Shown: positions 4,436 through 40,209 of the stretch, piece after piece
Numbering within the stretch: position 1 is the first letter of the stretch
How the letters are laid out: every line of letters begins with the position of its first letter
Assembly (NCBI GenBank): GCA_964592865.1
Contig: CAZQGN010000013.1
Span: 11,426 to 75,425 of the forward strand
Source: an uncultured Chloracidobacterium sp.
GTDB lineage: Bacteria; Acidobacteriota; Blastocatellia; Pyrinomonadales; Pyrinomonadaceae
Direction of reading: 5' to 3'
DNA length: 64,000 nt
Notes under the pieces: generated by a model
Database searches by the model: none
What the model saw: the letters and a program-made list of their open reading frames with translations, nothing else
Told to the model about the DNA's origin: nothing
Made by a program: the position numbers and the translations under genes

Positions 4436-5236
4436 TTATTTTGCGGCGGTCATTTTTCGGTTGCGCAGGTGCGTAGCGATACGCTCTTCGGCAATTGCCA
4501 CATACTCAGCCGAAATTTCGGAGCCGATCCAGCGGCGCTCATTGAGCATCGCGGCCTTGGCGGTCGTCCCGCTGCCCATAAAACAGTCGTAAACGAGGTC
4601 GCCGGCGTCGGTCCAGGTCAGTATCTGGTCCACGGCCAGTTGTTCGGGAAATATCGCCGGATGTTTAAAGGCGATCTTGTCCTTCGAACTCGATGTCCCG
4701 ACATTGTAATAGAAGATGTTGTTGACCTTTCGCTCCTTTGGAGCGATGTGGTTGTGGGCAAGGTCGTTGCGGCCGACCTTTGTGATACGAAACGACTTGA
4801 AAGCCTTTTCCTGCTTGATGACCTGCATTATAGGGTTGAACTTTGCCGGCTGCCCTTTGCTGAAGCAGAACATATACTCGAACGCCTGTCGGTACCGCTT
4901 GCCGCAATCGCTCGGGATCGGATTATTCTTGGCGTAGATCATCGTATCGTGGACACGAAAACCGGCGTCCTGGAACGTGATCGCGTGACGAAAACTCGAG
5001 AGCGTCTCGTTGCCGCCGACGGTGCGGTCGCCGACGACCCAGATCACGACACCGCCCGGCTTGGTCTTGGCGAAAAGCCCGGCGGCGATCTCCTCGACCG
5101 GAAAATGATATCCGTTATAATCGCGAAGGTCATCGTACGGCGGACTGGTGATCGTCATGTCAAGCCAGTCGTCCGGCATACGGGCGAGCGTCTCGATGCA
5201 ATTTTCCTGGTAGATCTTGCCGATCTCGATACTCAT
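4436..5236 (-). CDS. Site-specific DNA methyltransferase, beta-class (N4-cytosine or N6-adenine)
   Basis: Motif IV TSPPYDD lies near the N-terminus and motif I FMGSGTT near the C-terminus (circularly permuted beta order). The ATG at 5236 forms an ATGA overlap with the upstream gene's stop. Confidence 0.85.
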   Translation of the reverse strand: MSIEIGKIYQENCIETLARMPDDWLDMTITSPPYDDLRDYNGYHFPVEEIAAGLFAKTKPGGVVIWVVGDRTVGGNETLSSFRHAITFQDAGFRVHDTMIYAKNNPIPSDCGKRYRQAFEYMFCFSKGQPAKFNPIMQVIKQEKAFKSFRITKVGRNDLAHNHIAPKERKVNNIFYYNVGTSSSKDKIAFKHPAIFPEQLAVDQILTWTDAGDLVYDCFMGSGTTAKAAMLNERRWIGSEISAEYVAIAEERIATHLRNRKMTAAK

Positions 5237-6084
5237 AGGGGCCATTTGGACAGAAAATCGCCGATGTACTGGTTAGCGTCCTTTTCCGCTTCAAACTCGA
5301 GGAATTCGCGAAATTGCTCTAGTTCGTTAAAGTAATCTTCTTCGCCAAGCTTGCCGCAAAAATAGGCGACGCGCAGCCAGACCAGATATGTGTTCAACGT
5401 GTCGATCCGGTTGTACTCGACGATCCTGGTGATGTCGCGTTCGAGCCAGAGATCGGTCACCTGATCGCCCTTGACGTCGATCTTGCCGGGATAGCCGCAC
5501 AGCTTGGCAAGTTCGTCGAGCCGCGGCGACATACCGCCGCGATTTGAGAATTTGGTCAGGAGGTCGAGATGTGCCTCGCTGTTGCGCGAATCAAAATAGT
5601 CCTCGCCCTCCCACGGCTTATTCGGCCGCTGGTTGAACGCGGGAGCGGTGATCTCGTTGATGATGCCGCGTTGGATCAGGACCTGCAGGTCGGACTCGCT
5701 GGAATTAAAGCCGACGAGCTGCGGCCGGCGTTCACCGATAATATACAAAAAGCGGTCAATGATCGCGGCTTCGTCAACGTCATCTGTTTCGAGCGGCAGC
5801 TTTGGCAGCGAATTGAGTGAAAATTCGATGGTCCGCTCGCCGTTTCGATAGACCGACTTTCGCGAAAGGAACGCGATCGAGACCACCCGCGAAAACATGT
5901 ACTTAAGGAATGGTCGAGGGTTCTTCTCGGCGTCGTACTGCGGCGAATGCTCCCACAGATGCTGCATCGCCTCGATCTCGGTCGTATCGTCCGGAAGGTC
6001 AAACAGCCGCCGCGACCCGGCCGCGTCGGGTACCCATTCGAGGTCGTAGAAAAGTGCGAGGTCGTGGATCGGCGATTTCAGCAT
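5233..6084 (-). CDS. PolB-exonuclease-like 3'-5' exonuclease (DEDDy, RNase H fold), stand-alone
   Basis: ExoI FYDLEWVPD, ExoII GFNSSESDLQVL and ExoIII YNRIDTLNTY are in the canonical order. The ATG at 6084 is preferred over the TTG at 6096. Confidence 0.7.
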   Translation of the reverse strand: MLKSPIHDLALFYDLEWVPDAAGSRRLFDLPDDTTEIEAMQHLWEHSPQYDAEKNPRPFLKYMFSRVVSIAFLSRKSVYRNGERTIEFSLNSLPKLPLETDDVDEAAIIDRFLYIIGERRPQLVGFNSSESDLQVLIQRGIINEITAPAFNQRPNKPWEGEDYFDSRNSEAHLDLLTKFSNRGGMSPRLDELAKLCGYPGKIDVKGDQVTDLWLERDITRIVEYNRIDTLNTYLVWLRVAYFCGKLGEEDYFNELEQFREFLEFEAEKDANQYIGDFLSKWPL

Positions 6085-30324: not shown

Positions 30325-31146
30325 ATGCGGTTTTACTCTCGATCAACGGTTCTGACGATCATTTTGGCGGCGGTTTTGCTGGTGCCGGTATTTGGCCAAA
30401 CGGCGACGCCCGCACAGGTCAAACTCGGGTCTGAGACGGCCAAAAACGGCTTTAAGAACGAGGACGAGATCCGCGACAAACTCAATAATTGGCGAGCGGA
30501 CGACGACGCCAAGGTCTGGCTGGGCGCGATGGGATATAAGTTGACCGAGATCGAGGGTGTCACGGCGACCAAGCCGCACGGCGAAAAAGCCGATGTCGAG
30601 ATCGTGGTCAGGACCAAGGCCGGCGAACGCAAAGAGGGCATTTCGATCAAACTCGTCAGCAGCGAGAACGGCTTTAATCAGATCGATAAACGGTGGCTCG
30701 CACACTACGTGAAAATGTGGAAGATACCGGCGGATGTCGAGGCGGCGCTCAAATTGTTCGTCGGTGAAACGCCGCCGGACAGGCCGTCGAAGGACCCGAA
30801 GCGGATGTACCTGAACGAACTCGACGCGGCTACGCAGAAGGCCGTTATCGATTTTTTTACCGCAAATAAGGAGATGATCGTGTCGGACCTTTTCGCCGGT
30901 GACGGTGAACACGCCGCCGGTTGGATCATGGTCGCACTCAAATCGAGCGATAAACCGCGTTGGGTGTTGAGGACCGACGCTTACGCTATCAAATTCTACA
31001 GCGAGGGCAATGTCGAGTTGACCCGCAACGGCAACCTCAAGATCGGCCGCATCACCGTCCAACGCAAGGGCGGCGACGGCGGCCGCGAATCTGCCAAGAT
31101 GCTCCAGTTCAAGATCAATCCGGCACTGCTGTTCGAAGGGAAATGA
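30325..31146 (+). CDS. HinP1I/MspI-like restriction-endonuclease-fold protein with N-terminal signal peptide/TM helix
   Basis: LGSETAKNGFKNEDEI, KADVEIVV...GISIKLVS (D...SxK catalytic pattern), GFNQIDKRWLAHY and ITVQRKGGDGGRESAKMLQFKI resemble my recollection of R.HinP1I. The N-terminus MRFYSRSTVLTIILAAVLLVPVFGQTA is hydrophobic. Confidence 0.6.
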   Translation: MRFYSRSTVLTIILAAVLLVPVFGQTATPAQVKLGSETAKNGFKNEDEIRDKLNNWRADDDAKVWLGAMGYKLTEIEGVTATKPHGEKADVEIVVRTKAGERKEGISIKLVSSENGFNQIDKRWLAHYVKMWKIPADVEAALKLFVGETPPDRPSKDPKRMYLNELDAATQKAVIDFFTANKEMIVSDLFAGDGEHAAGWIMVALKSSDKPRWVLRTDAYAIKFYSEGNVELTRNGNLKIGRITVQRKGGDGGRESAKMLQFKINPALLFEGK

Positions 31147-32041: not shown

Positions 32042-32173
32042 ACAGTCTCGATGAACATCCCATTAATATTTTACAAAAATCGAACGGCGAAAGTATGCTC
32101 GGGCTACCGCGAAGCGGCAAAAATGCAGCGACCCGGGATCTCCCAGGCACTGGTCTTCGGTTGGAAATAGTAC

Positions 32174-32202
32174 TTGACAGGTGTATAGACAGGCTATACA
32201 CT
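32174..32202 (+). promoter_or_regulatory. higBA promoter with embedded operator-like inverted repeat
   Basis: TTGACA (32174-32179), then GTGTATAG-acagg-CTATACAC (32181-32201). The right arm supplies a TATACA/TACACT -10-like hexamer, and the GTG start of higB is at 32209. Confidence 0.55.
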
Positions 32203-32208
32203 CATGTT

Positions 32209-32487
32209 GTGATCAAGTCCTTTCGGCACAAAGGCATTGAGCGTTTCTTTACGACCGGATCGAAGTCAGGCATTCAGCCGAAGCATGCTGACAAGCTCCG
32301 CCGCCAGTTATTTGCTCTGGACAATTCGAGGATGGCTGAAGATATGAACGCTCCAGGGTGGCGTCTGCATCAATTGAGAGGTGAACTCGATGGCCACTGG
32401 TCGATAGATGTCAGCGGTAATTGGCGACTCACATTTGCATTCGAAGGCGAAGATGCGGTTCTCGTCGATTATCAGGATCATCACTGA
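32209..32487 (+). CDS. higB: Type II toxin, HigB (RelE/ParE superfamily, 'killer protein')
   Basis: (M)IKSFRHKGIERFFTTGSKSGIQPKHADKLRRQL..L and WRLTFAFEGEDAVLVDYQDHH are the classic HigB pattern. GTG start. Confidence 0.85.
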   Translation: MIKSFRHKGIERFFTTGSKSGIQPKHADKLRRQLFALDNSRMAEDMNAPGWRLHQLRGELDGHWSIDVSGNWRLTFAFEGEDAVLVDYQDHH

Positions 32488-32496
32488 GGTGGTTTT

Positions 32497-32772
32497 ATGC
32501 GTATGTTTGATCCGCCCCATCCGGGCACCGTATTAAGAGATTATCTTGGCAATGTATCGGTGTCGTCCGCTGCTTTGCACTTAGGAGTGACGCGGGCGAC
32601 ACTCTCGCGCATCCTCAACGGCAATGCGGGCATTTCTGCTGAAATGGCCTTGAGCCTGTCCGAAGCTCTCGGTACCAGCCCGGAACTTTGGATAGGGATG
32701 CAGTCGCAATATGACCTGTGGCGGGCATCAAAAAATCGCCGCCGGAAGGTTGTTCGACGTCTAGCGGCGTAG
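32497..32772 (+). CDS. higA: Type II antitoxin HigA (XRE-family HTH)
   Basis: PHPG..L.....LG.S...AA..LGV.R..LSR.LNG...IS.EMAL.LS and W...Q..YDL. Starts 10 nt downstream of higB. Confidence 0.85.
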   Translation: MRMFDPPHPGTVLRDYLGNVSVSSAALHLGVTRATLSRILNGNAGISAEMALSLSEALGTSPELWIGMQSQYDLWRASKNRRRKVVRRLAA

Positions 32773-32879: not shown

Positions 32880-33305
32880 TCAGCTTACTAGCTTGGCGTC
32901 CATCGTGATCTCGGCGTTAAGGAGCTTTGAGATCGGGCAGCCTGCCTTGGCGTTGGCGGCGCAGGTCTGAAAATCATCTTCGGTTGCCACGGGTACATTT
33001 GCGGTTACTTCGAGGTGGACCTTTGTGACGGCAAAACCCGATTCGAGTTTTTCGAGCCTTACGGCCGCGGTGGTGTTGATGCTGGCCGGTGTGAACCCCG
33101 CGTTGGTCAACTGGCCCGACAGTGCCATCGAAAAGCAGCCGGCGTGTGCCGCCGCGATCAACTCTTCGGGGTTGGTCCCGATCCCGTCCTCAAACCGCGT
33201 GCTGAACGAATATTGTGTGTCCGCGAGAACACCGCTCTCAGTCGTTATCCGTCCGCCGCCTTCCTTGATAGTGCCATTCCACTCTGCTGATGCTTTTCTT
33301 AACAT
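32880..33305 (-). CDS. osmC: Peroxiredoxin OsmC
   Basis: Alignable along its length to E. coli OsmC (TESGVL, GTNPEELIAAAHAGCFSMALS, AKAGCPISKLLNAEIT). Confidence 0.9.
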   Translation of the reverse strand: MLRKASAEWNGTIKEGGGRITTESGVLADTQYSFSTRFEDGIGTNPEELIAAAHAGCFSMALSGQLTNAGFTPASINTTAAVRLEKLESGFAVTKVHLEVTANVPVATEDDFQTCAANAKAGCPISKLLNAEITMDAKLVS

Positions 33306-33488
33306 AGTTTTCTCCTTGAATTGTGTGATATCCAAGTCTAACACGAACCGTCCGCGAACCTGTCAGGCGGCTATTTTCTGGAATAGGTCGCAGTTTACTT
33401 ATTCATGATTCGGTCTTCGTTATTCAATATTCGCCACCCGCTGTCTCCATATCTCAACCTCCGATATTCGCGAACGCTCAAGGAGTTA

Positions 33489-33779
33489 TCACTTCGTTGG
33501 TTTTTTTTCTCGCGTGGCAAGCGTGTCTTCAGTGATCGTAATGCGCTTTTGATGTACGTAAAGGCAGAGATTCACCCCAGCGTTCTTTCCCGCCGTCGTC
33601 GAACGGCTGTAGGTATTTAACTTGGCAAGCGCCTGACCCAACCCGAAGTGCAATTTGAGTGCTTCCTCAAACGAGAGAATCATGTTTACGCTTGCCCGAG
33701 CATCTTCGGCTGGAGCGGGGCTCAGTTTTGCAACCGATAATGTTCCAAATGATGATTTTGTTTTCTTTTCTTGTGCCAT
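33489..33779 (-). CDS. Hypothetical 96-aa protein, last gene of the MTase/DUF262-HNH string
   Basis: ORF 30 nt downstream of the nuclease stop, on the same strand and with the same low-GC composition. No motif recognised. Confidence 0.4.
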   Translation of the reverse strand: MAQEKKTKSSFGTLSVAKLSPAPAEDARASVNMILSFEEALKLHFGLGQALAKLNTYSRSTTAGKNAGVNLCLYVHQKRITITEDTLATREKKPTK

Positions 33780-33809
33780 TTTATTCCTTCACTTTGTTGT
33801 ATAGGTTTC

Positions 33810-34976
33810 TTATCTATTTCCCTTCGCTTGATTGTGCGTCTTGCACAACATCTCGCAGTTCTCGATGCTTGATGCTCCGCCGTTGCTCCAGGCTGTTACG
33901 TGGTCGGCTTCCATTTCGGCGAGCTTCCAAATTCTGGTTATGTTTGAATCGTGACCGATCGCGCAGAATGAGCAGTTTGAAACGCCTGCGGCCTCGGCAG
34001 CTTGGGTTTGTTTTGTGTAAACCGTGGTTTTGGTCGCGGTGTCGAAGAGCCTGATGTCGAGAAGCTGCGGCTTTTGCGAACCGTCGAGGATATATTCGAA
34101 CACACCTTTCTTATTGTTTACATAAGGGTCGGCATAGAGCTTTTTGACCATTTCCGATATCTTTTTCGGATCGTATGAATTCTTATGATACTTCTCGTAA
34201 AAACTGCCCCACTCGAGTCCTTTCATTTCTTTTGGGACGTCGATGAATACGCTTGAGACCCAATCGATCACGGTGTTGAAGTAATTCTTCAATTCGGTGA
34301 TATTCGTGTCGTTGCGATGGGCGCTCATGTATTTGCCGATGTCGCCTTTGCTGACCCAATCGAGAGCACGTTCGAGAAACTCCTGTCGGTTCGCACTGCC
34401 CTTGATGTAAGCGCTCCACTTTTGAATGTTGGCGTTTTGGCTGTTGCTGAATTCGGTTTTAGCAAGCGTAACAAAAGGCCCTGAATAGATAGCGTTCAAC
34501 AGTTCTTGGGCGTTAAGCGGAATGCCCGCGATGTTTATGGTTTCGAACCATTGCTTGATCTCGGTCTCGGTGCCTTCGCACTCGTAGATGAGGAGCTTTG
34601 AGTTTTGAATAAACTCGCGTTGGTCGGCGGGCAAGCTGTCGAAGTATTTCGGATTGCTGTTTTCCATTATCGGGAACTTGCCTGTCACAAAGCGGCCGAT
34701 ACTGGTGATACGCTGTTGGCCGTCGAGCACTTCGAATTTGTCTTCGCCGACCTTGTTAAAGTAAATAAGCCCGAGCGGATAGCCTTTGAGAAGCGAACGA
34801 ATTACATCTTGCTCACGCTTGCCGCCGCCGTCTGCATAGATAAAGTTGCGTTGGTATTCGGGCTGGATCGTCAGCTTTCCGCCAAGGCCAAAAAGCCCTT
34901 TGCCCTCATACGAGTTGTACGTGAACCCGTCGCAAATATCGGCGATTGTGATGTCGGTGTTAAGTGTGGTAATCAC
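33810..34976 (-). CDS. DUF262 (ParB/Srx-like NTPase/nuclease domain) - HNH endonuclease fusion
   Basis: DUF262 signatures IQPEYQRNF and [13 protein letters not shown]-terminal HNH: CSFC...[32 protein letters not shown]. The GTG start overlaps the MTase stop (GTGA). Confidence 0.85.
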
Positions 34977-36127
34977 TTCTTATCTCCCTTTCGTCGATGT
35001 CGGATTACAATGCGCTTGTACATGCGTGAACGGTTTACAATCGGACCGTTCCAAAGCAACTCTCGTCCCGAACTACTGACCTCCACGGACTTAACTGCAC
35101 CTAAATCGTCGCCATGTTTGCCACCTTCGAAACATCCGATAATTTCAAACTGGTCGGGGTTGTACTTGTCGAGGAAAGTTATTGGAACGCCCATCATGCC
35201 GTCATAATCGCTAGGAATCTCCTTATATGTAGAAACCTCAATTGCATCGAAGTTATCGTATCGATCGTAAGTTTGTTTTCCCTTGAGACTCTTACTGAAA
35301 CGCAGGTTATCGGCCATCGTCATCAGCGGCAGTTCCTGATGTCTTCGGCCATGATCGAGATTCGTAAACCACATGATGCTGCCCATGCTGAAATACTTTA
35401 TTCCATTTACGACCTTCTTGCGGGATTCGGTCTTTATGTCGTAATCGTCTTGCACCTGGAACCATTTCGTTCCACCATTGTCAGCACCGAGCCACATCTT
35501 ATCTTCCTTGATGAGTGGAAAAATCTCCTTGTAAGTGATCGCGTTTTGGCTCCCAATTATAAGAAACTTCTTCTTGTATTCGACAAGTTGCGCGACATAT
35601 TCACGAAAAAGCGAGAACGGTGGATTTGTTACTACGATGTCGGCTTGTTTTAGTAGTTCGATGCATTCGGGTGTGCGGAAATCGCCGCCTTGTGTTAGCG
35701 GTTTGCGCTTGTGCGGGTTTTGCTCGAAGAAAAGCTTAACGTCCTCGATGTCCGTCATGCCGTCTTGGTTGATATCCGTAACTTCCTCGATCTCGAACGC
35801 GACGGCCTTTGGCCTTTCACGCTTGCCGTTTCCTTCGTCGTATTCCAGCAGACTAAATTGATGTCCCGCAATAGGCGAACCGTCATAACTCGCAGTGACA
35901 AGTTTCTTGAGTCCCAACTTGTTGAAATTAGCCGCAAAGTATTTGAAAAAATTACTTTCAAAAGGATCGTCGCAGTTGCAATAAACGACCTTGTCGCGAA
36001 AAGTGTCGGGATCGTATTCGAGATAAGCCTCGATCTCTTTTCGGATATCGTCGTATTGCGTGTAAAACTCGTCTTTCTTCGCGACCTTAGCAGCGTTTAG
36101 ATCGGTGTTTTGGGAAGTAGTCGGCAT
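34973..36127 (-). CDS. N6-adenine DNA methyltransferase, EcoRI-methylase-like family
   Basis: N-terminal KDEFYTQ...[18 protein letters not shown] block and catalytic [10 protein letters not shown] (NPPF). Confidence 0.85.
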
Positions 36128-36206
36128 CAGACGTAATTATGCCACGAGAGAACAAATGTGGCTAAATCCATGATCAAAGAGCGGCGTCACACAATGCAAT
36201 TGATAG

Positions 36207-37031
36207 CTAATTTGCGTACGCATGAACAATGCTGCGAGTGAATGTCCCATTATTTAAATTTACCTGACCTTCAACTCTGACCTCAAAATTGAATTTAGCG
36301 ATACCAAGAATCGCACCCTTCATCTGGCACTGATATGTTCCGTAATATGTCCATCGAACTTCTTGGTAGGCCTCTGTCGTAAGGGCTGTCTGGTCACATC
36401 CAATGCCAACAAAATCAGAAGCAGGATGCTTCTGCCTTGCGGCGGAATTCGCGGCCATCAGCATTTCGTCTCTCATCAAAGGATAGACCTTTTGCAAACC
36501 CTTGCGAATATCCTCCGGACCAAGATTGGTTTCGGATTGGTTTGTTAGGTTAGATGGCGCAACCTGATCTGGGATACTCAATTGCTGGGGTCTCGCTGAT
36601 GGAGTTTGCTCGCTTCTCTCTCCATTTGACGACTTAGGTTCGGGAACCGCGACCCTGCCAAAAAAACCGTAGGCGATTACTCTTTCTGGCTGCGATATGA
36701 CGTTAATCGACAGAGTTGAGTAAACAACTCGGTCTTGATAAGTAAAATCAAGCACGCCCAATTTTTCACCAATAACTCCCGCTCCATAAACCAATCCATG
36801 CTTTGCCAATACAGCATTTCTAAGCTCGGCCTCTGTTGGCTTGGTAGCCACAGCCACCCCACATGCGATCACAAACAAGACAATTAGAATGGCCGCGAAT
36901 GCCGAAGAGAGCCCGCCCGAAGAAACAGCCTTTTTTGAGCTTCGGGCGGAAATCGGATGTCCGCATTGAGGACAGGCTTCGGCAAGAGCCGAGACCGAGT
37001 GACTGCACGTTGGACAATTGGTAAGGCTCAT
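36207..37031 (-). CDS. Zinc-ribbon / single-TM protein with a C-terminal domain of unknown function
   Basis: CPTC-x12-CPQC zinc ribbon, the TM helix LSSAFAAILIVLFVIACGVAVA, low-GC composition and the same strand as the MTase. Confidence 0.55.
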   Translation of the reverse strand: MSLTNCPTCSHSVSALAEACPQCGHPISARSSKKAVSSGGLSSAFAAILIVLFVIACGVAVATKPTEAELRNAVLAKHGLVYGAGVIGEKLGVLDFTYQDRVVYSTLSINVISQPERVIAYGFFGRVAVPEPKSSNGERSEQTPSARPQQLSIPDQVAPSNLTNQSETNLGPEDIRKGLQKVYPLMRDEMLMAANSAARQKHPASDFVGIGCDQTALTTEAYQEVRWTYYGTYQCQMKGAILGIAKFNFEVRVEGQVNLNNGTFTRSIVHAYAN

Positions 37032-37533
37032 AAGTGTCAGAAGCAACCAATCCTAAGACGTTGGTGGAGTGACTTTTTCTCGGGTGGTGGCGTCAAACTT
37101 CGAATTGTGAATATCGAATATAGAACAATGGGTATGATATCTACGCACGGCGGTCCTGACGCGGATCGGTCGTAAATGTTGGCGTTGTTCATAGGGACGA
37201 TGAACCTCCGAATTTTTCCGTATTACCGTGAAGATTTGGTGTAGGTAGATAATACGCGCGTTTTGATCTAAGTCAAACGGAAAAAAGTCGGCATAGATGG
37301 TCATTGGTCTGTAGGATCAGGGTTCGGAACCGGGAACCTCGGAAAATAATCGGATCTTTGTCGTTGCATATATCGTATATCGTTTTATAGCTGCATTGCG
37401 GCCGTCGATCTTTGAAAATCAAATTCTGTGTGTTGGACAGCAGCCGCTGTTCGAGCCGAAGCCATCCTTTGCCAAGCCAAAGGAACATCGTTCCATCGAA
37501 CCGCGACGTTCTTCAACCCGTGAAACATCTCGC

Positions 37534-37659
37534 GGACAGCCGGGACACTCGGGACACTCGGGACAGCCGGGACAGCCGGGACAGTCGGGACAGTCGGGAC
37601 AGTCAGGACAGTCAGGACAGTCAGGACAGCGTGGACAGTCGGGACAGCGTGGACAGTTC
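37534..37659. repeat. Tandem 9-bp repeat, 14 copies (GGACAGYCR)
   Basis: Counted directly. Unit variants are ggacagccg, ggacactcg, ggacagtcg, ggacagtca, ggacagcgt and ggacagttc. Confidence 0.95.
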
Positions 37660-37673
37660 TGACTAATTGTCGA

Positions 37674-37769
37674 ACTGGCCGCCCGCTAACGCAGGCGGTT
37701 CTGACACTGGCCGCCCGCTGACGCAGGCGGTTCTGACACTGGCCGCCCGCTGACGCAGGCGGCTCTGAC
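37674..37769. repeat. Three head-to-tail copies of a 32-bp palindrome-containing unit (REP/BIME-like)
   Basis: The unit actggCCGCCCGCtgacGCAGGCGGttctgac occurs three times with 1-2 substitutions. Its internal 8-bp imperfect stem has a 4-nt loop. Confidence 0.95.
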
Positions 37770-37812
37770 AAGAGCAAGCACGGATACTTGCTCTCAATTC
37801 GGGTGTCGGTGG

Positions 37813-40146
37813 TCAGTGTTTGTCGGTCATTTCGTAGATGAGCTTGCCGCCGGCGGCGATCTGGTTGTAAGTGATGTGCCGAGCGTCGATCGGGCGGCCG
37901 TTGAGCGTAATGCTGCGGACATAGACGTTCTTGTCGGATTGACCGCGGGCCTCGATAGTCAGTTTTTTGCCGTTTTCGAGTGAAATGACGGCGGTCTTGA
38001 CCGAAGGGCTGCCGAACTGATATTCGCCGGAGGCAGGTGCGACCGGGTAGAAGCCGAGCGCGCTGAATATGTACCACGCCGACATCTGTCCGCAATCGTC
38101 GTTGCCGCCGAGTCCGTCGGGAGCCGGTTTATATTGGTGGTCAAGTATCATCCGGACGCGTTCCTGCGTCTTCCACGGTTCGTCGGTCCAATTGTAAAGG
38201 TATGCGACGTGATGGGCGGGTTCGTTGCCGTGGATGTAGCCGCCGATGATGCCGTCGCGGGTTATGTCCTCGGTCTCGGCGAAGAATTCGTCAGGCAGAT
38301 GCATCGAGAAAAGCTCGTCGAGGTGTTTTGCGAACGCGTCGCGTCCGCCCATCTTTTTCACCATTTCGGGAACGTCGTGCGGCACATAAAGGCTGTAATT
38401 CCAGGCGTTTCCCTCGATGAAGCCCTGGCCTTCGGTCTTGAGAGGATCAAATTTCGTCAAGAATTTACCGTCCGAGCCCTTAGGCCGGGTAAATCCGGCC
38501 GACGCGTCATAAACGTTCTTCCAGTTGCCCGAGCGGTTGAGGAATTCGTTATAGACATCGAGCCGTCCGAGTTTGTATGCCGCCCGGGCGATCGCCCAAT
38601 CGTCGTAAGCGTATTCGAGCGTCTTCGAGACCGACGAACTGTTTTTGTCTTCGGGCACGTAGCCGAGCGACATGTAATATTCGAGACCGTCGTAGTAATT
38701 GGTCTTGGCGGTCTGCACCGAGGCGTCGAGAGCCTTGTTCGCCTCGGCACCCGTGAGATTGCCGCTGACGATCGCGTCGGCGATGACCGAAACGCTGTGA
38801 TAGCCGATCATGCACCAATTCTCATTGGCATAATGCGACCAGACGGGCAGCATCTTGTGCACGCTCTGATCGTAGTGTGCCTGCATCGAACGCACCATGT
38901 CGCGGTTGCGGGCCGGCTGGATGATGTTGAGCAGCGGGTGCAGCGCGCGGTAGGTGTCCCACAGCGAAAAAGTGGTGTAATTAGTAAAGTTCGGCGTACC
39001 GGCTTTAGTGGGTTGCGGGTTGCGGCCGGGACTTTGAGCGCTGTGAATATTCTGATCCAGGCCCTTGTATCTGCCGTCGGCGTCCATGTAGACGGTTGGC
39101 GACAGCATCGCGTGGTAGAGTGCCGTGTAGAAGTTGGTCATCTCGCCCTCGCTGTTGGCGGTGATCTGAACCTTGCTCAGTTCTTTGTTCCAGGCAGCTT
39201 GGGCCTCGGCCTTTACACGCTCAAAATCCCAGTGCGGTATCTCCGCTTTCAGATTCGCCCTCGCTCCGTCGGTCGATACGGGTGAGATCGCAAATTTGAC
39301 CCGGATCTTTTCGTTACCCTTGGTATCAAAATCAAAGTGCGCCCGGATCTGTTTGCCGGCCATCTCGGGAAAATTCTTTGTCTGGTCGAACTTGCGCCAA
39401 AATCCCTTGTAGTCCTGCTTGCCGAACTCGCGAAAACCATATGATTTGAACGGTTTAGAAAATTCCATCGCAAAATAGACGGTACGCGTGCGTGCCCAGC
39501 CGTTTGTCTGGCGATAGCCGACGATGGTGTGGTCGTTTTCGACACGGGCAAAGGTCCAGACGTTCTTGTCTTCGTAGTTATAAATGCCGTGCATCAGGTC
39601 GAGAATGATGTGGGCATCGGACGACGCGTTCGGGAAGGTGTATTGGTGCATCCCGACCCGCGTTGACGCGGTCATTTCGGCGAGGATGTTGTCGTCGTCG
39701 AGTTTTACTTTGTAGTATCCGGCCTCGGCCGTTTCGTTCGCGTGAGAGAAAGCCGAGCGAAAACCGCTTTTGGGGTCGCCCTTCGCTCCGGGTTCCAACT
39801 GCAGCGGCCCGACCGTCGGCATTACCAGAAAATCGCCGAGGTCCGAGTGGCCTGTGCCGCTGAAATGCGTGTGCGAAAACCCGACGATCTCTGTGTCGTC
39901 ATACTGATATCCGGCACAATACTTATAGGTGTCCTTGTTATATTTTCCGCCGATGTTGTGCGGCTGCTGATCGGTGTCGGGCGAGAGCTGGACCGAGCCG
40001 AACGGCACCGTCGCACCGGGAAAGGTGTGCCCCATTCGCTGCGTGCCGATGAGCGGGTTGACGTAACGGACGTAGTTTTCCGCTCGCTGAGCCGGAACTG
40101 AAAGGTATAACAACGCGACGATGATCATCAGTGAAATAGTCTTCAT
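37813..40146 (-). CDS. GH92 family alpha-mannosidase, secreted
   Basis: VNPLIGT....GHTFPGATVPFG.VQLSPDT and later GH92 blocks (GNEP.HH..YLY). Signal peptide from MKTISLMIIVALL. Confidence 0.9.
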   Translation of the reverse strand: MKTISLMIIVALLYLSVPAQRAENYVRYVNPLIGTQRMGHTFPGATVPFGSVQLSPDTDQQPHNIGGKYNKDTYKYCAGYQYDDTEIVGFSHTHFSGTGHSDLGDFLVMPTVGPLQLEPGAKGDPKSGFRSAFSHANETAEAGYYKVKLDDDNILAEMTASTRVGMHQYTFPNASSDAHIILDLMHGIYNYEDKNVWTFARVENDHTIVGYRQTNGWARTRTVYFAMEFSKPFKSYGFREFGKQDYKGFWRKFDQTKNFPEMAGKQIRAHFDFDTKGNEKIRVKFAISPVSTDGARANLKAEIPHWDFERVKAEAQAAWNKELSKVQITANSEGEMTNFYTALYHAMLSPTVYMDADGRYKGLDQNIHSAQSPGRNPQPTKAGTPNFTNYTTFSLWDTYRALHPLLNIIQPARNRDMVRSMQAHYDQSVHKMLPVWSHYANENWCMIGYHSVSVIADAIVSGNLTGAEANKALDASVQTAKTNYYDGLEYYMSLGYVPEDKNSSSVSKTLEYAYDDWAIARAAYKLGRLDVYNEFLNRSGNWKNVYDASAGFTRPKGSDGKFLTKFDPLKTEGQGFIEGNAWNYSLYVPHDVPEMVKKMGGRDAFAKHLDELFSMHLPDEFFAETEDITRDGIIGGYIHGNEPAHHVAYLYNWTDEPWKTQERVRMILDHQYKPAPDGLGGNDDCGQMSAWYIFSALGFYPVAPASGEYQFGSPSVKTAVISLENGKKLTIEARGQSDKNVYVRSITLNGRPIDARHITYNQIAAGGKLIYEMTDKH

Positions 40147-40209
40147 TTTTGGTTTCCTCGGCCACAAAATGACGGGATCAACGGGTCATAGAAATAGATC
40201 GAACACGCA

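Follow-up and report, generated by a model that had tools for sequence, protein, structure and literature searches.

The 64,000-nucleotide stretch of DNA analysed here (the window; contig CAZQGN010000013.1 of an uncultured Chloracidobacterium sp.) carries a gene for an EcoRI-family N6-adenine DNA methyltransferase (methylase for short), followed directly by a gene for a nuclease that joins an N-terminal DUF262 domain to a C-terminal HNH domain. The pair is real and horizontally acquired, and we consider it, with a probability of roughly 80%, to be the core of the locus, a two-gene restriction-modification (R-M) cassette of the BanLI type. It adds one more member to a widespread R-M family, catalogued and partly tested before, and is no novel system. 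Alone, this copy contributes little; the interest that remains lies in the role of the ParB/Srx domain of the nuclease, in a single, hemi-methylating methylase, and in a family of small R-M-associated proteins.

Both proteins are recognised by family profiles. The methylase matches the Pfam family EcoRI_methylase (PF13651, 5.3e-133) over its full length as well as the full-length PADLOC model MTase_II (PDLC03297, 1.6e-114), and its translation shows KDEFYTQ, CNCDDP and the catalytic motif NPPF. The nuclease matches GmrSD_N/DUF262 (PF03235, 3.6e-20) with amino acids (aa) 36–164, on profile positions 12–198 of 199, and a Cys4-type HNH (PF01844, 1.4e-7) with aa 353–388, its middle region (aa 165–330) giving no family match; the PADLOC model REase_II (PDLC03418, 1.7e-89) takes in aa 9–387 on profile positions 8–371 of 372. 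Its translation contains the motifs QPEYQR, DGQQR and CxxC...DH...N...CxxxC..HN. The cassette therefore presents, as in Type II systems, separate R and M proteins that each match a full-length Type II model, and it has no helix-turn-helix (HTH) gene of the kind found in Type II systems controlled by a C protein.

These domain calls and motifs, the four co-directional minus-strand reading frames of the locus and the overlap between the methylase stop and the nuclease start had been proposed in an earlier account made from the DNA letters alone (the sequence-only reading), and all were recovered here, the overlap by reading it directly in the sequence. The same account had presented the pair as a candidate non-canonical system; as an unrecognised design it does not hold, given the full-length Type II models for both proteins and an architecture described and partly tested as BanLI (PMC3990576, PMC13091528). 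Through BanLI, one of the refutations named in that account applies, that of a pair already characterised in REBASE.

Methylase and nuclease across related genomes

To place the pair in context, we scanned a single genome for each GTDB species, which gave 390 relatives of the nuclease, and took the loci of the best 80. More than 15 phyla are represented; these include Acidobacteriota, Pseudomonadota, Chloroflexota, Planctomycetota, Verrucomicrobiota, Bacteroidota, Nitrospirota, Armatimonadota, Patescibacteria, a Woesearchaeote and others. An EcoRI-family methylase adjoins the nuclease in 74 of the 80 loci (tblastn), lying upstream on the same strand in 72, while in L033 and L055 the methylase match falls beyond the 3' end of the nuclease. 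A contig edge at the nuclease accounts for four of the six exceptions, bringing the linkage to 74 of 76 testable loci; the other two are genuine, solitary nuclease copies in mobile or phage contexts. Of 71 loci, 47 show the four-base stop/start overlap between methylase and nuclease that is seen in the window. All-against-all clustering of open reading frames (ORFs) found no conserved third gene or controller protein upstream or downstream in the 80 loci. Also, the identity matrices of methylase and nuclease correlate (Mantel r = 0.61, p <= 0.0005), showing that, as far as their sequences tell, the two co-evolve and are inherited together. The functional unit is the methylase-nuclease pair only, that is, two genes.

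Some copies are unusual. One solitary nuclease (L079, 848–2011) is flanked by an IS200-like transposase and a phage large terminase and belongs to a metagenome-assembled genome that also holds a methylase-linked copy (L002), and the other (L075, 670–1830) follows a T5orf172 protein. A representative of a 50%-identity cluster, P0232 (688 aa), contains EcoRI_methylase, GmrSD_N and HNH in one polypeptide; it is either a natural fusion of methylase and nuclease or an artefact of a frameshift or of assembly at the four-base overlap.

The family is large. At least 8000 nuclease candidates were found at E <= 1e-5 in a set of 5.8 billion proteins, and all those scored passed; an exhaustive HMMER search gave 430 nuclease clusters at 50% identity (E <= 1e-30), with full-length members down to ~35% identity. 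The best 120 homologues measure 375–414 aa, 115 of them exactly 388, and are 74–100% identical across phyla. NCBI's annotation pipeline PGAP names the nuclease "DUF262 domain-containing protein", and some sources label its homologues McrA. A literature search on DUF262-HNH or ParB-HNH proteins returned nothing, and the papers found on PF13651 merely list the family.

Plasmids carry the cassette as well, some of them small (9–10 kb, in Moraxella, Apilactobacillus and Pediococcus). Others are Enterococcus faecium megaplasmids of 173–246 kb (pBN83-1, our locus L081, and eight similar ones), on which the nuclease is 62% identical to that of the window; in pBN83-1, the one inspected, optrA and erm(A) are no more than a few kb from the cassette. 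The GC content of the cassette is below that of its flanks in 47 of 55 loci, yet tracks it (r = 0.74), and nuclease GC at third codon positions ranges from 0.52 to 0.85 in 14 sampled loci, against a protein identity that averages 74% over all 55 loci. This tracking of the host, together with the spread at third positions under high protein identity, indicates that the cassette has been resident for long under purifying selection, rather than having spread in one recent sweep.

Probable kinship with BanLI and the proposed logic of restriction

BanLI was described in Bifidobacterium animalis subsp. lactis by O'Connell Motherway et al. in 2014 (PMC3990576). Its methylase, M.BanLI (41.7 kDa), was aligned to M.EcoRI in Fig. 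S2A of that paper, and the gene banLI.R (43.5 kDa) follows the M.BanLI gene (PMC3990576). Single-molecule real-time (SMRT) sequencing showed that the N6-methyladenine (m6A) made by M.BanLI falls on a single strand of an asymmetric site, 5'-RTCAGG-3', marked RTC(m6A)GG, and pre-methylation raised transformation 1.8-fold (PMC3990576). In a 2026 paper, the REBASE Type II restriction endonuclease for RTCAGG in B. animalis is a gene that carries the RefSeq annotation "DUF262 domain-containing protein" (PMC13091528).

The window pair has the same arrangement, with an EcoRI-like m6A methyltransferase (PF13651 with NPPF) and, directly downstream on the same strand, a DUF262 gene of nearly the same product size (43.9 kDa, against ~43.5 kDa), the two forming a two-gene cassette with a single methylase. 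A bifidobacterial relative gives indirect support: on plasmid pBC of Bifidobacterium choerinum, the gene after an EcoRI-family methylase encodes a nuclease that has every family motif and is 53–55% identical to the window nuclease. In this plasmid (L183 and L184) the nuclease is split by an insertion of ~2.4 kb that carries the chloramphenicol exporter gene cmx, and the methylase is intact. Based on architecture, size, annotation and the bifidobacterial homologue, the window pair very probably belongs to the BanLI type. The host differs, being acidobacterium-like and from soil or sludge instead of a Bifidobacterium, and the window methylase is ~43% identical to its B. choerinum relative, the one bifidobacterial methylase aligned, so that the RTCAGG specificity is not transferable to the window enzyme.

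Several points weigh against assigning the window pair to a BanLI-like restriction system. The homology to R.BanLI is indirect, running through architecture, size, annotation and the bifidobacterial homologue. Restriction by BanLI itself is weak, the cloned pair reducing plaquing of phage P1vir in E. coli ~10-fold (efficiency of plaquing ~0.1; PMC3990576). Neither RTCAGG nor any palindrome attributable to the system is depleted in the 80 loci (805 kb) or in the window. No solved structure matches the nuclease by sequence, and its AlphaFold2 model is poor, with a mean predicted local distance difference test score (pLDDT) of 56 and less than 50 over the N-terminal 160 aa; the alignment behind it consisted of homologues 75–88% identical. 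Foldseek on this poor model gave non-significant HNH matches only, such as 4H9D, and sequence searches of the PDB with the nuclease, the methylase and a 43-sequence nuclease profile returned chance matches only.

A recognition site was sought by oligonucleotide depletion, which in the same 805 kb and in the window gave no signal for GAATTC, for sites with an AATT core or for RTCAGG. The palindromes CTAG, CTCGAG and GTCGAC are depleted, and are not attributable to the R-M system of the window. That RTCAGG is not depleted says little for or against a BanLI-like specificity.

How might the cassette work? The EcoRI-family methyltransferase would place N6-methyladenine on a specific motif of the host genome, and the DUF262-HNH protein, translationally coupled to it, would cut DNA that lacks the mark through its zinc-stabilised C-terminal HNH active site. 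The DUF262 domain probably binds or hydrolyses a nucleotide and thereby gates or positions the HNH cut, and the order of the genes, methylase before nuclease, with their four-base overlap, would tie synthesis of the nuclease to that of the methylase. The relation to EcoRI concerns the methylase alone in this comparison: it shares the PF13651 family, the catalytic NPPF and the N-terminal KDEFYTQ/CNCDDP block with M.EcoRI, whereas R.EcoRI is a PD-(D/E)XK enzyme unrelated to the DUF262-HNH nuclease. EcoRI also has a palindromic site, both strands of which are methylated, and its gene order is nuclease, then methylase.

Conservation within the nuclease is consistent with this scheme. In 75 members at 34–61% identity, the residues Q42, R43, D85, G86, R89, E158, N161, W239, R309, F311, C335 and H359 are invariant, and D358, C338, N373, C378 and N382 are kept at 90% or more. 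Q42/R43 and D85/G86/R89 belong to the QR and DGQQR motifs, which mark the nucleotide pocket of the ParB/Srx fold; the HNH histidine and the zinc cysteines, too, are invariant or close to it. Purifying selection thus shows in the alignment at both the nucleoside triphosphate (NTP)-binding motifs and the HNH residues, the invariance of which across 75 members argues that both sites are needed, and the invariant DGQQR and QR motifs make NTP-independence of the nuclease doubtful.

DUF262 is the domain common to GmrSD, BrxU and SspE, and it brings up a Type IV-like explanation, in which the nuclease is a relative of GmrSD that attacks foreign modified DNA and the methylase is an orphan, unrelated or tuning. 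The window nuclease shares with these enzymes the N-terminal ParB/Srx-like domain with its QR and DGQQR motifs and a C-terminal His-Me finger nuclease. The McrA label on some homologues would suit such a role, as would partial, N-terminal PADLOC matches to Menshen NsnA (2.3e-25) and PD-T4-2_A (2.5e-13); these two share DUF262 but lack both HNH and methylase and have other partners, which in Menshen is an OLD nuclease. However, the nuclease has no match to DUF1524 (PF07510, GmrSD_C), the C-terminal domain proper to GmrSD, BrxU and SspE, and carries a classical Cys4 HNH (PF01844) instead; it is also much shorter, at 388 aa, and nearly always paired with a dedicated methylase, usually with overlapping codons, and the solved chains of BrxU and SspE give it no detectable match by sequence. 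Furthermore, methylase and nuclease appear to co-evolve, the BanLI methylation protects incoming DNA (PMC3990576), and a nuclease that needed the mark of its own partner would be suicidal. We therefore rejected a GmrSD-type Type IV system, which we regard as highly improbable. Linkage, gene order and the BanLI transformation data point to protective methylation, which also disfavours the proposal in the sequence-only reading that the methyl mark tunes a modification-sensing nuclease; its other proposal, of methylation-protected restriction by a DUF262-HNH nuclease coupled to its own m6A methyltransferase, is upheld by the linkage in 74 of 76 loci and by the BanLI data.

The BanLI-type cassette leaves a question of host protection. 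The published view of BanLI is of an incomplete Type IIS system that lost a second methylase. This view does not fit the conservation of one methylase in 74 of 76 testable loci; a single hemi-methylating methylase would then be the normal state of the family and not a degenerate one, a norm that contradicts the published view and raises the question of how hemi-methylation protects the host. Should one-strand methylation hold for the whole family, replication would leave some daughter sites with no mark at all, and the enzyme would have to tolerate them. A two-site requirement gives this tolerance to Type III and MmeI-like enzymes. Both Type III and Type IIL (MmeI-like) systems, which we compare as functional analogues only, use one methylase acting on one strand of an asymmetric site, a property shared with the BanLI prototype, and the one-strand mark is tolerated as cleavage needs two sites and, in Type III, also NTP hydrolysis.

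These considerations led us to weigh a Type III-like holoenzyme, in which a nuclease with little or no specificity of its own is complexed with a methyltransferase that supplies recognition, and in which the ParB/Srx domain acts as an NTP switch or sliding clamp between two unmethylated asymmetric sites before cutting. Such two-site logic would explain how one hemi-methylating enzyme protects the host. The nuclease is more conserved than its own methylase in 55 of 55 loci (mean identity 74% against 60%) and is of near-fixed length (388 aa in 39 of 49 full-length pairs, range 385–391), a pattern that resembles Res and HsdR and is unlike Type II restriction endonucleases; among Type II enzymes, a nuclease better conserved than its own methylase is unusual. 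The variation of the methylase clusters in aa 221–240 and 341–360, and barely co-varies with the C-terminal half of the nuclease (r = 0.11). With the invariant NTP-binding motifs, the existence of the 688-aa fusion and a prototype whose methylation is confined to one strand of its asymmetric site (PMC3990576), these observations fit a holoenzyme, and the NTP motifs, the constraint on the nuclease and the one-strand prototype suggest a Type III-like, NTP-switched logic.

Other observations count against the holoenzyme. Neither nuclease nor methylase gave a match to ResIII, helicase or DEAD domains, so there is no helicase-like Res motor or ATPase motor domain, nor a fused methylase-nuclease, points of difference from Type III and MmeI-like systems; the one exception is the fusion P0232, which may itself be an assembly or frameshift artefact. 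A complex of methylase and nuclease is hypothetical, and aa 165–330 of the nuclease are large enough for a DNA-recognition domain of its own. The conservation of the nuclease would be explained equally well by one specificity common to all members. On balance, we hold the Type III-like holoenzyme, with its ParB/Srx switch or clamp, to be rather unlikely. Similarly doubtful is a broader combination, by which the family would be a distinct restriction class whose ParB/Srx switch replaces the Type III motor, accompanied by a new small-protein family that travels with R-M systems of Types I, IIG and II; in it, one hemi-methylating methylase might suffice, since the HNH nuclease, perhaps complexed with the methylase, would cut only once two unmodified sites had communicated in an NTP-dependent way. 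We give this combination equally modest odds.

For the two-gene BanLI-type cassette, the survey adds to the literature we found the single methylase as the norm, the constraint on the nuclease and an unannotated family of 90–100 aa proteins in several types of R-M operon, discussed below. The nuclease family is a cheap and well-defined target for biochemistry, with 388 aa, at least 8000 sequence clusters, and copies on small plasmids and on the E. faecium optrA/erm(A) plasmids.

Neighbouring genes in the low-GC island

The cassette lies with two further genes in a stretch of low GC content (Table 1), which agrees with the sequence-only reading, as do the positions of osmC, higBA, a GH92-sized gene and two tandem arrays. 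The GC content is 0.475 in the cassette, 0.48 in both the 96-aa ORF and the zinc-ribbon gene, 0.574 in the flanks, 0.57 in osmC and 0.56 in the GH92-sized gene. A Shine-Dalgarno-like GGGAG stands ~9 nt 5' of the nuclease GTG. Scans of the region for promoters and terminators gave site numbers no higher than in shuffled sequences.

Table 1. Features of the restriction-modification locus and its surroundings (positions in the window).
Feature	Position	Strand	Remarks
higB/higA	32095–32772	+	neighbour
osmC	32880–33305	-	neighbour
Low-GC island with all four genes	33250–37500		GC 0.45–0.50 vs 0.55–0.60
96-aa ORF	33489–33779	-	found at the coordinates of the sequence-only reading
DUF262-HNH nuclease	33810–34976	-	GTG start, 388 aa, 43.9 kDa
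GTGA overlap, methylase stop/nuclease start	34973–34976	-	read directly: ...aagaaGTGAtt
EcoRI-family N6-adenine DNA methyltransferase	34973–36127	-	384 aa, 44.5 kDa; first gene of the R-M cassette
Candidate promoter-like site	36136–36164	-	TAGCCA-17-CATAAT, TG upstream; consensus scan; just 5' of methylase start; tentative
Zinc-ribbon/single-transmembrane protein	36207–37031	-	ATG start, 274 aa; TTG at 37046 also open
Tandem array 1	37534–37657		9 bp x 13.8, unit GGACAGTCG
Tandem array 2	37674–37770		32 bp x 3
GH92-sized gene	37813–40167	-	neighbour

Neither an integrase, a transposase nor a controller-type HTH was found within 33.2–37.5 kb, as the sequence-only reading had stated, and no att-like direct repeats were found flanking the island. 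An empty site was sought on contigs with an identical OsmC protein; each of the nine places shown keeps, within the reach of its contig, at least that part of the island next to osmC. Near position 37205, ~175 bp upstream from the zinc-ribbon gene, and around higBA, metagenome contigs of the same species often end. Both tandem arrays lie between the zinc-ribbon gene and the GH92-sized gene, and several assemblies of the same species break nearby. The higBA locus is polymorphic among same-species metagenome contigs (L084–L086, L092–L094), with higB/higA in some and a 70-aa ORF there in others. These contig ends on the zinc-ribbon side and at higBA, along with the 70-aa ORF in place of higBA, suggest that both edges of the island vary at strain level. 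One contig (L096) has a shorter methylase call, of 314 aa.

The two further genes were considered, following the sequence-only reading, as parts of a four-component defence system; on this view, the methylase-nuclease pair would have its sensor or regulator in the zinc-ribbon membrane protein and the 96-aa protein. All four genes are co-directional, closely spaced and low in GC, the 96-aa family is genuinely R-M-associated, and the sole other context found for the zinc-ribbon gene is beside a restriction-type gene with an Mrr_cat domain. Against this, both genes are absent from all 80 nuclease loci, including the closest at 82–84% identity, there is no conserved third gene, the zinc-ribbon protein has three homologues, and the 96-aa family pairs with many unrelated systems. 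A system of four components is accordingly very unlikely in our estimate. The neighbourhood survey of nuclease homologues that the sequence-only reading had called for hence bore out the methylase as a linked gene and left out the other two.

Additional observations identify the zinc-ribbon gene as a neighbour. The protein's matches to the zinc-ribbon families PF13248 and PF12773 fall below the Pfam cut-offs, and its three homologues are the only ones in the 5.8 billion proteins. One of them, the only close one (L182, 80% identical), is followed by the Mrr_cat restriction-type gene in place of the methylase-nuclease pair, and DNA homology is limited to positions 840–1843 of L182 against 37064–36060 of the window, ending 67 nt inside the methylase gene. 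This suggests that cassettes may be swapped at a defence hotspot, with a putative recombination junction in the 5' end of the methylase gene. From its absence in the 80 loci, its rarity, the Mrr_cat neighbour and the limited DNA homology, we take the zinc-ribbon gene for a bystander within a defence hotspot of variable content, and not for the R-M component that the sequence-only reading had thought possible.

The 96-aa ORF begins 30 nt after the nuclease stop and encodes a basic protein (pI 9.8) that has no Pfam, NCBIfam, PADLOC or PHROG match and no HTH. We found 62 homologues at 47–99% identity (47–68% bar one near-identical copy), none with a Pfam domain on record; most family members measure 83–108 aa, and the conserved core of the family reads SFEEALKLHLGLGQALAKLN...NLCLY...RITINEG. 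All four of the contexts looked up are R-M operons of other types, with the gene orders hsdM-hsdS-[orf]-HEPN(pEK499_p136)-hsdR, MmeI-like-[orf], hsdM-DUF1016-hsdS-x-TIR-[orf]-hsdR and hsdM-x-hsdS-x-[orf]-Nmad2-x-hsdR, where [orf] is the homologue. In 80 further metagenome loci of the family, the commonest neighbouring Pfam families are Eco57I, N6_Mtase, MmeI_Mtase, TaqI_C, Methylase_S, EcoRI_methylase, ResIII, HSDR_N, T1R domains and GmrSD_N. An EcoRI-family methylase lies directly upstream of the homologue in L103 and L106. In 49 of 65 loci the gene upstream has the same orientation as the homologue, with a median gap of 48 nt, and by a crude probe search at least 16 of 83 loci have a gene of Type I, MmeI-like or EcoRI type no more than three ORFs away.

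The 96-aa ORF is thus a promiscuous R-M-associated accessory gene, separate from the cassette, of a family that recurs in R-M operons of Types I, IIG and II and in defence operons. Its role as an accessory, raised in the sequence-only reading, survives in this weaker form, as an R-M-associated family that pairs with other types; as a component of this particular system it finds no place, being missing from 80 of 80 loci. The AlphaFold2 model is confident (pLDDT 83.8) and shows an extended N-terminus, an 18-residue helix and a beta-hairpin; no PDB fold matches it at E <= 0.001, the best hits being MADS-box cores (E ~1, TM-score 0.2). Our guess is that the protein may be a basic, probably dimeric, nucleic-acid-binding accessory.

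Two more R-M-related genes lie elsewhere in the window. One encodes an endonuclease of the R.HinP1I family (30325–31146, plus strand; Pfam 1.9e-60) with a signal-peptide-like N-terminus, MRFYSRSTVLTIILAAVLLVPVFGQ, and no adjacent methylase; canonical motifs of m5C (5-methylcytosine) methylases were not found within the window. The HinP1I site, GCGC, is the most depleted 4-mer palindrome of the window (184 observed, 431 expected, z = -11.9). The other, 25 kb from the HinP1I-like gene, encodes an N6_N4_Mtase protein of 278 aa (4439–5272, minus strand; PF01555, 2.7e-40) with an SPPY motif.

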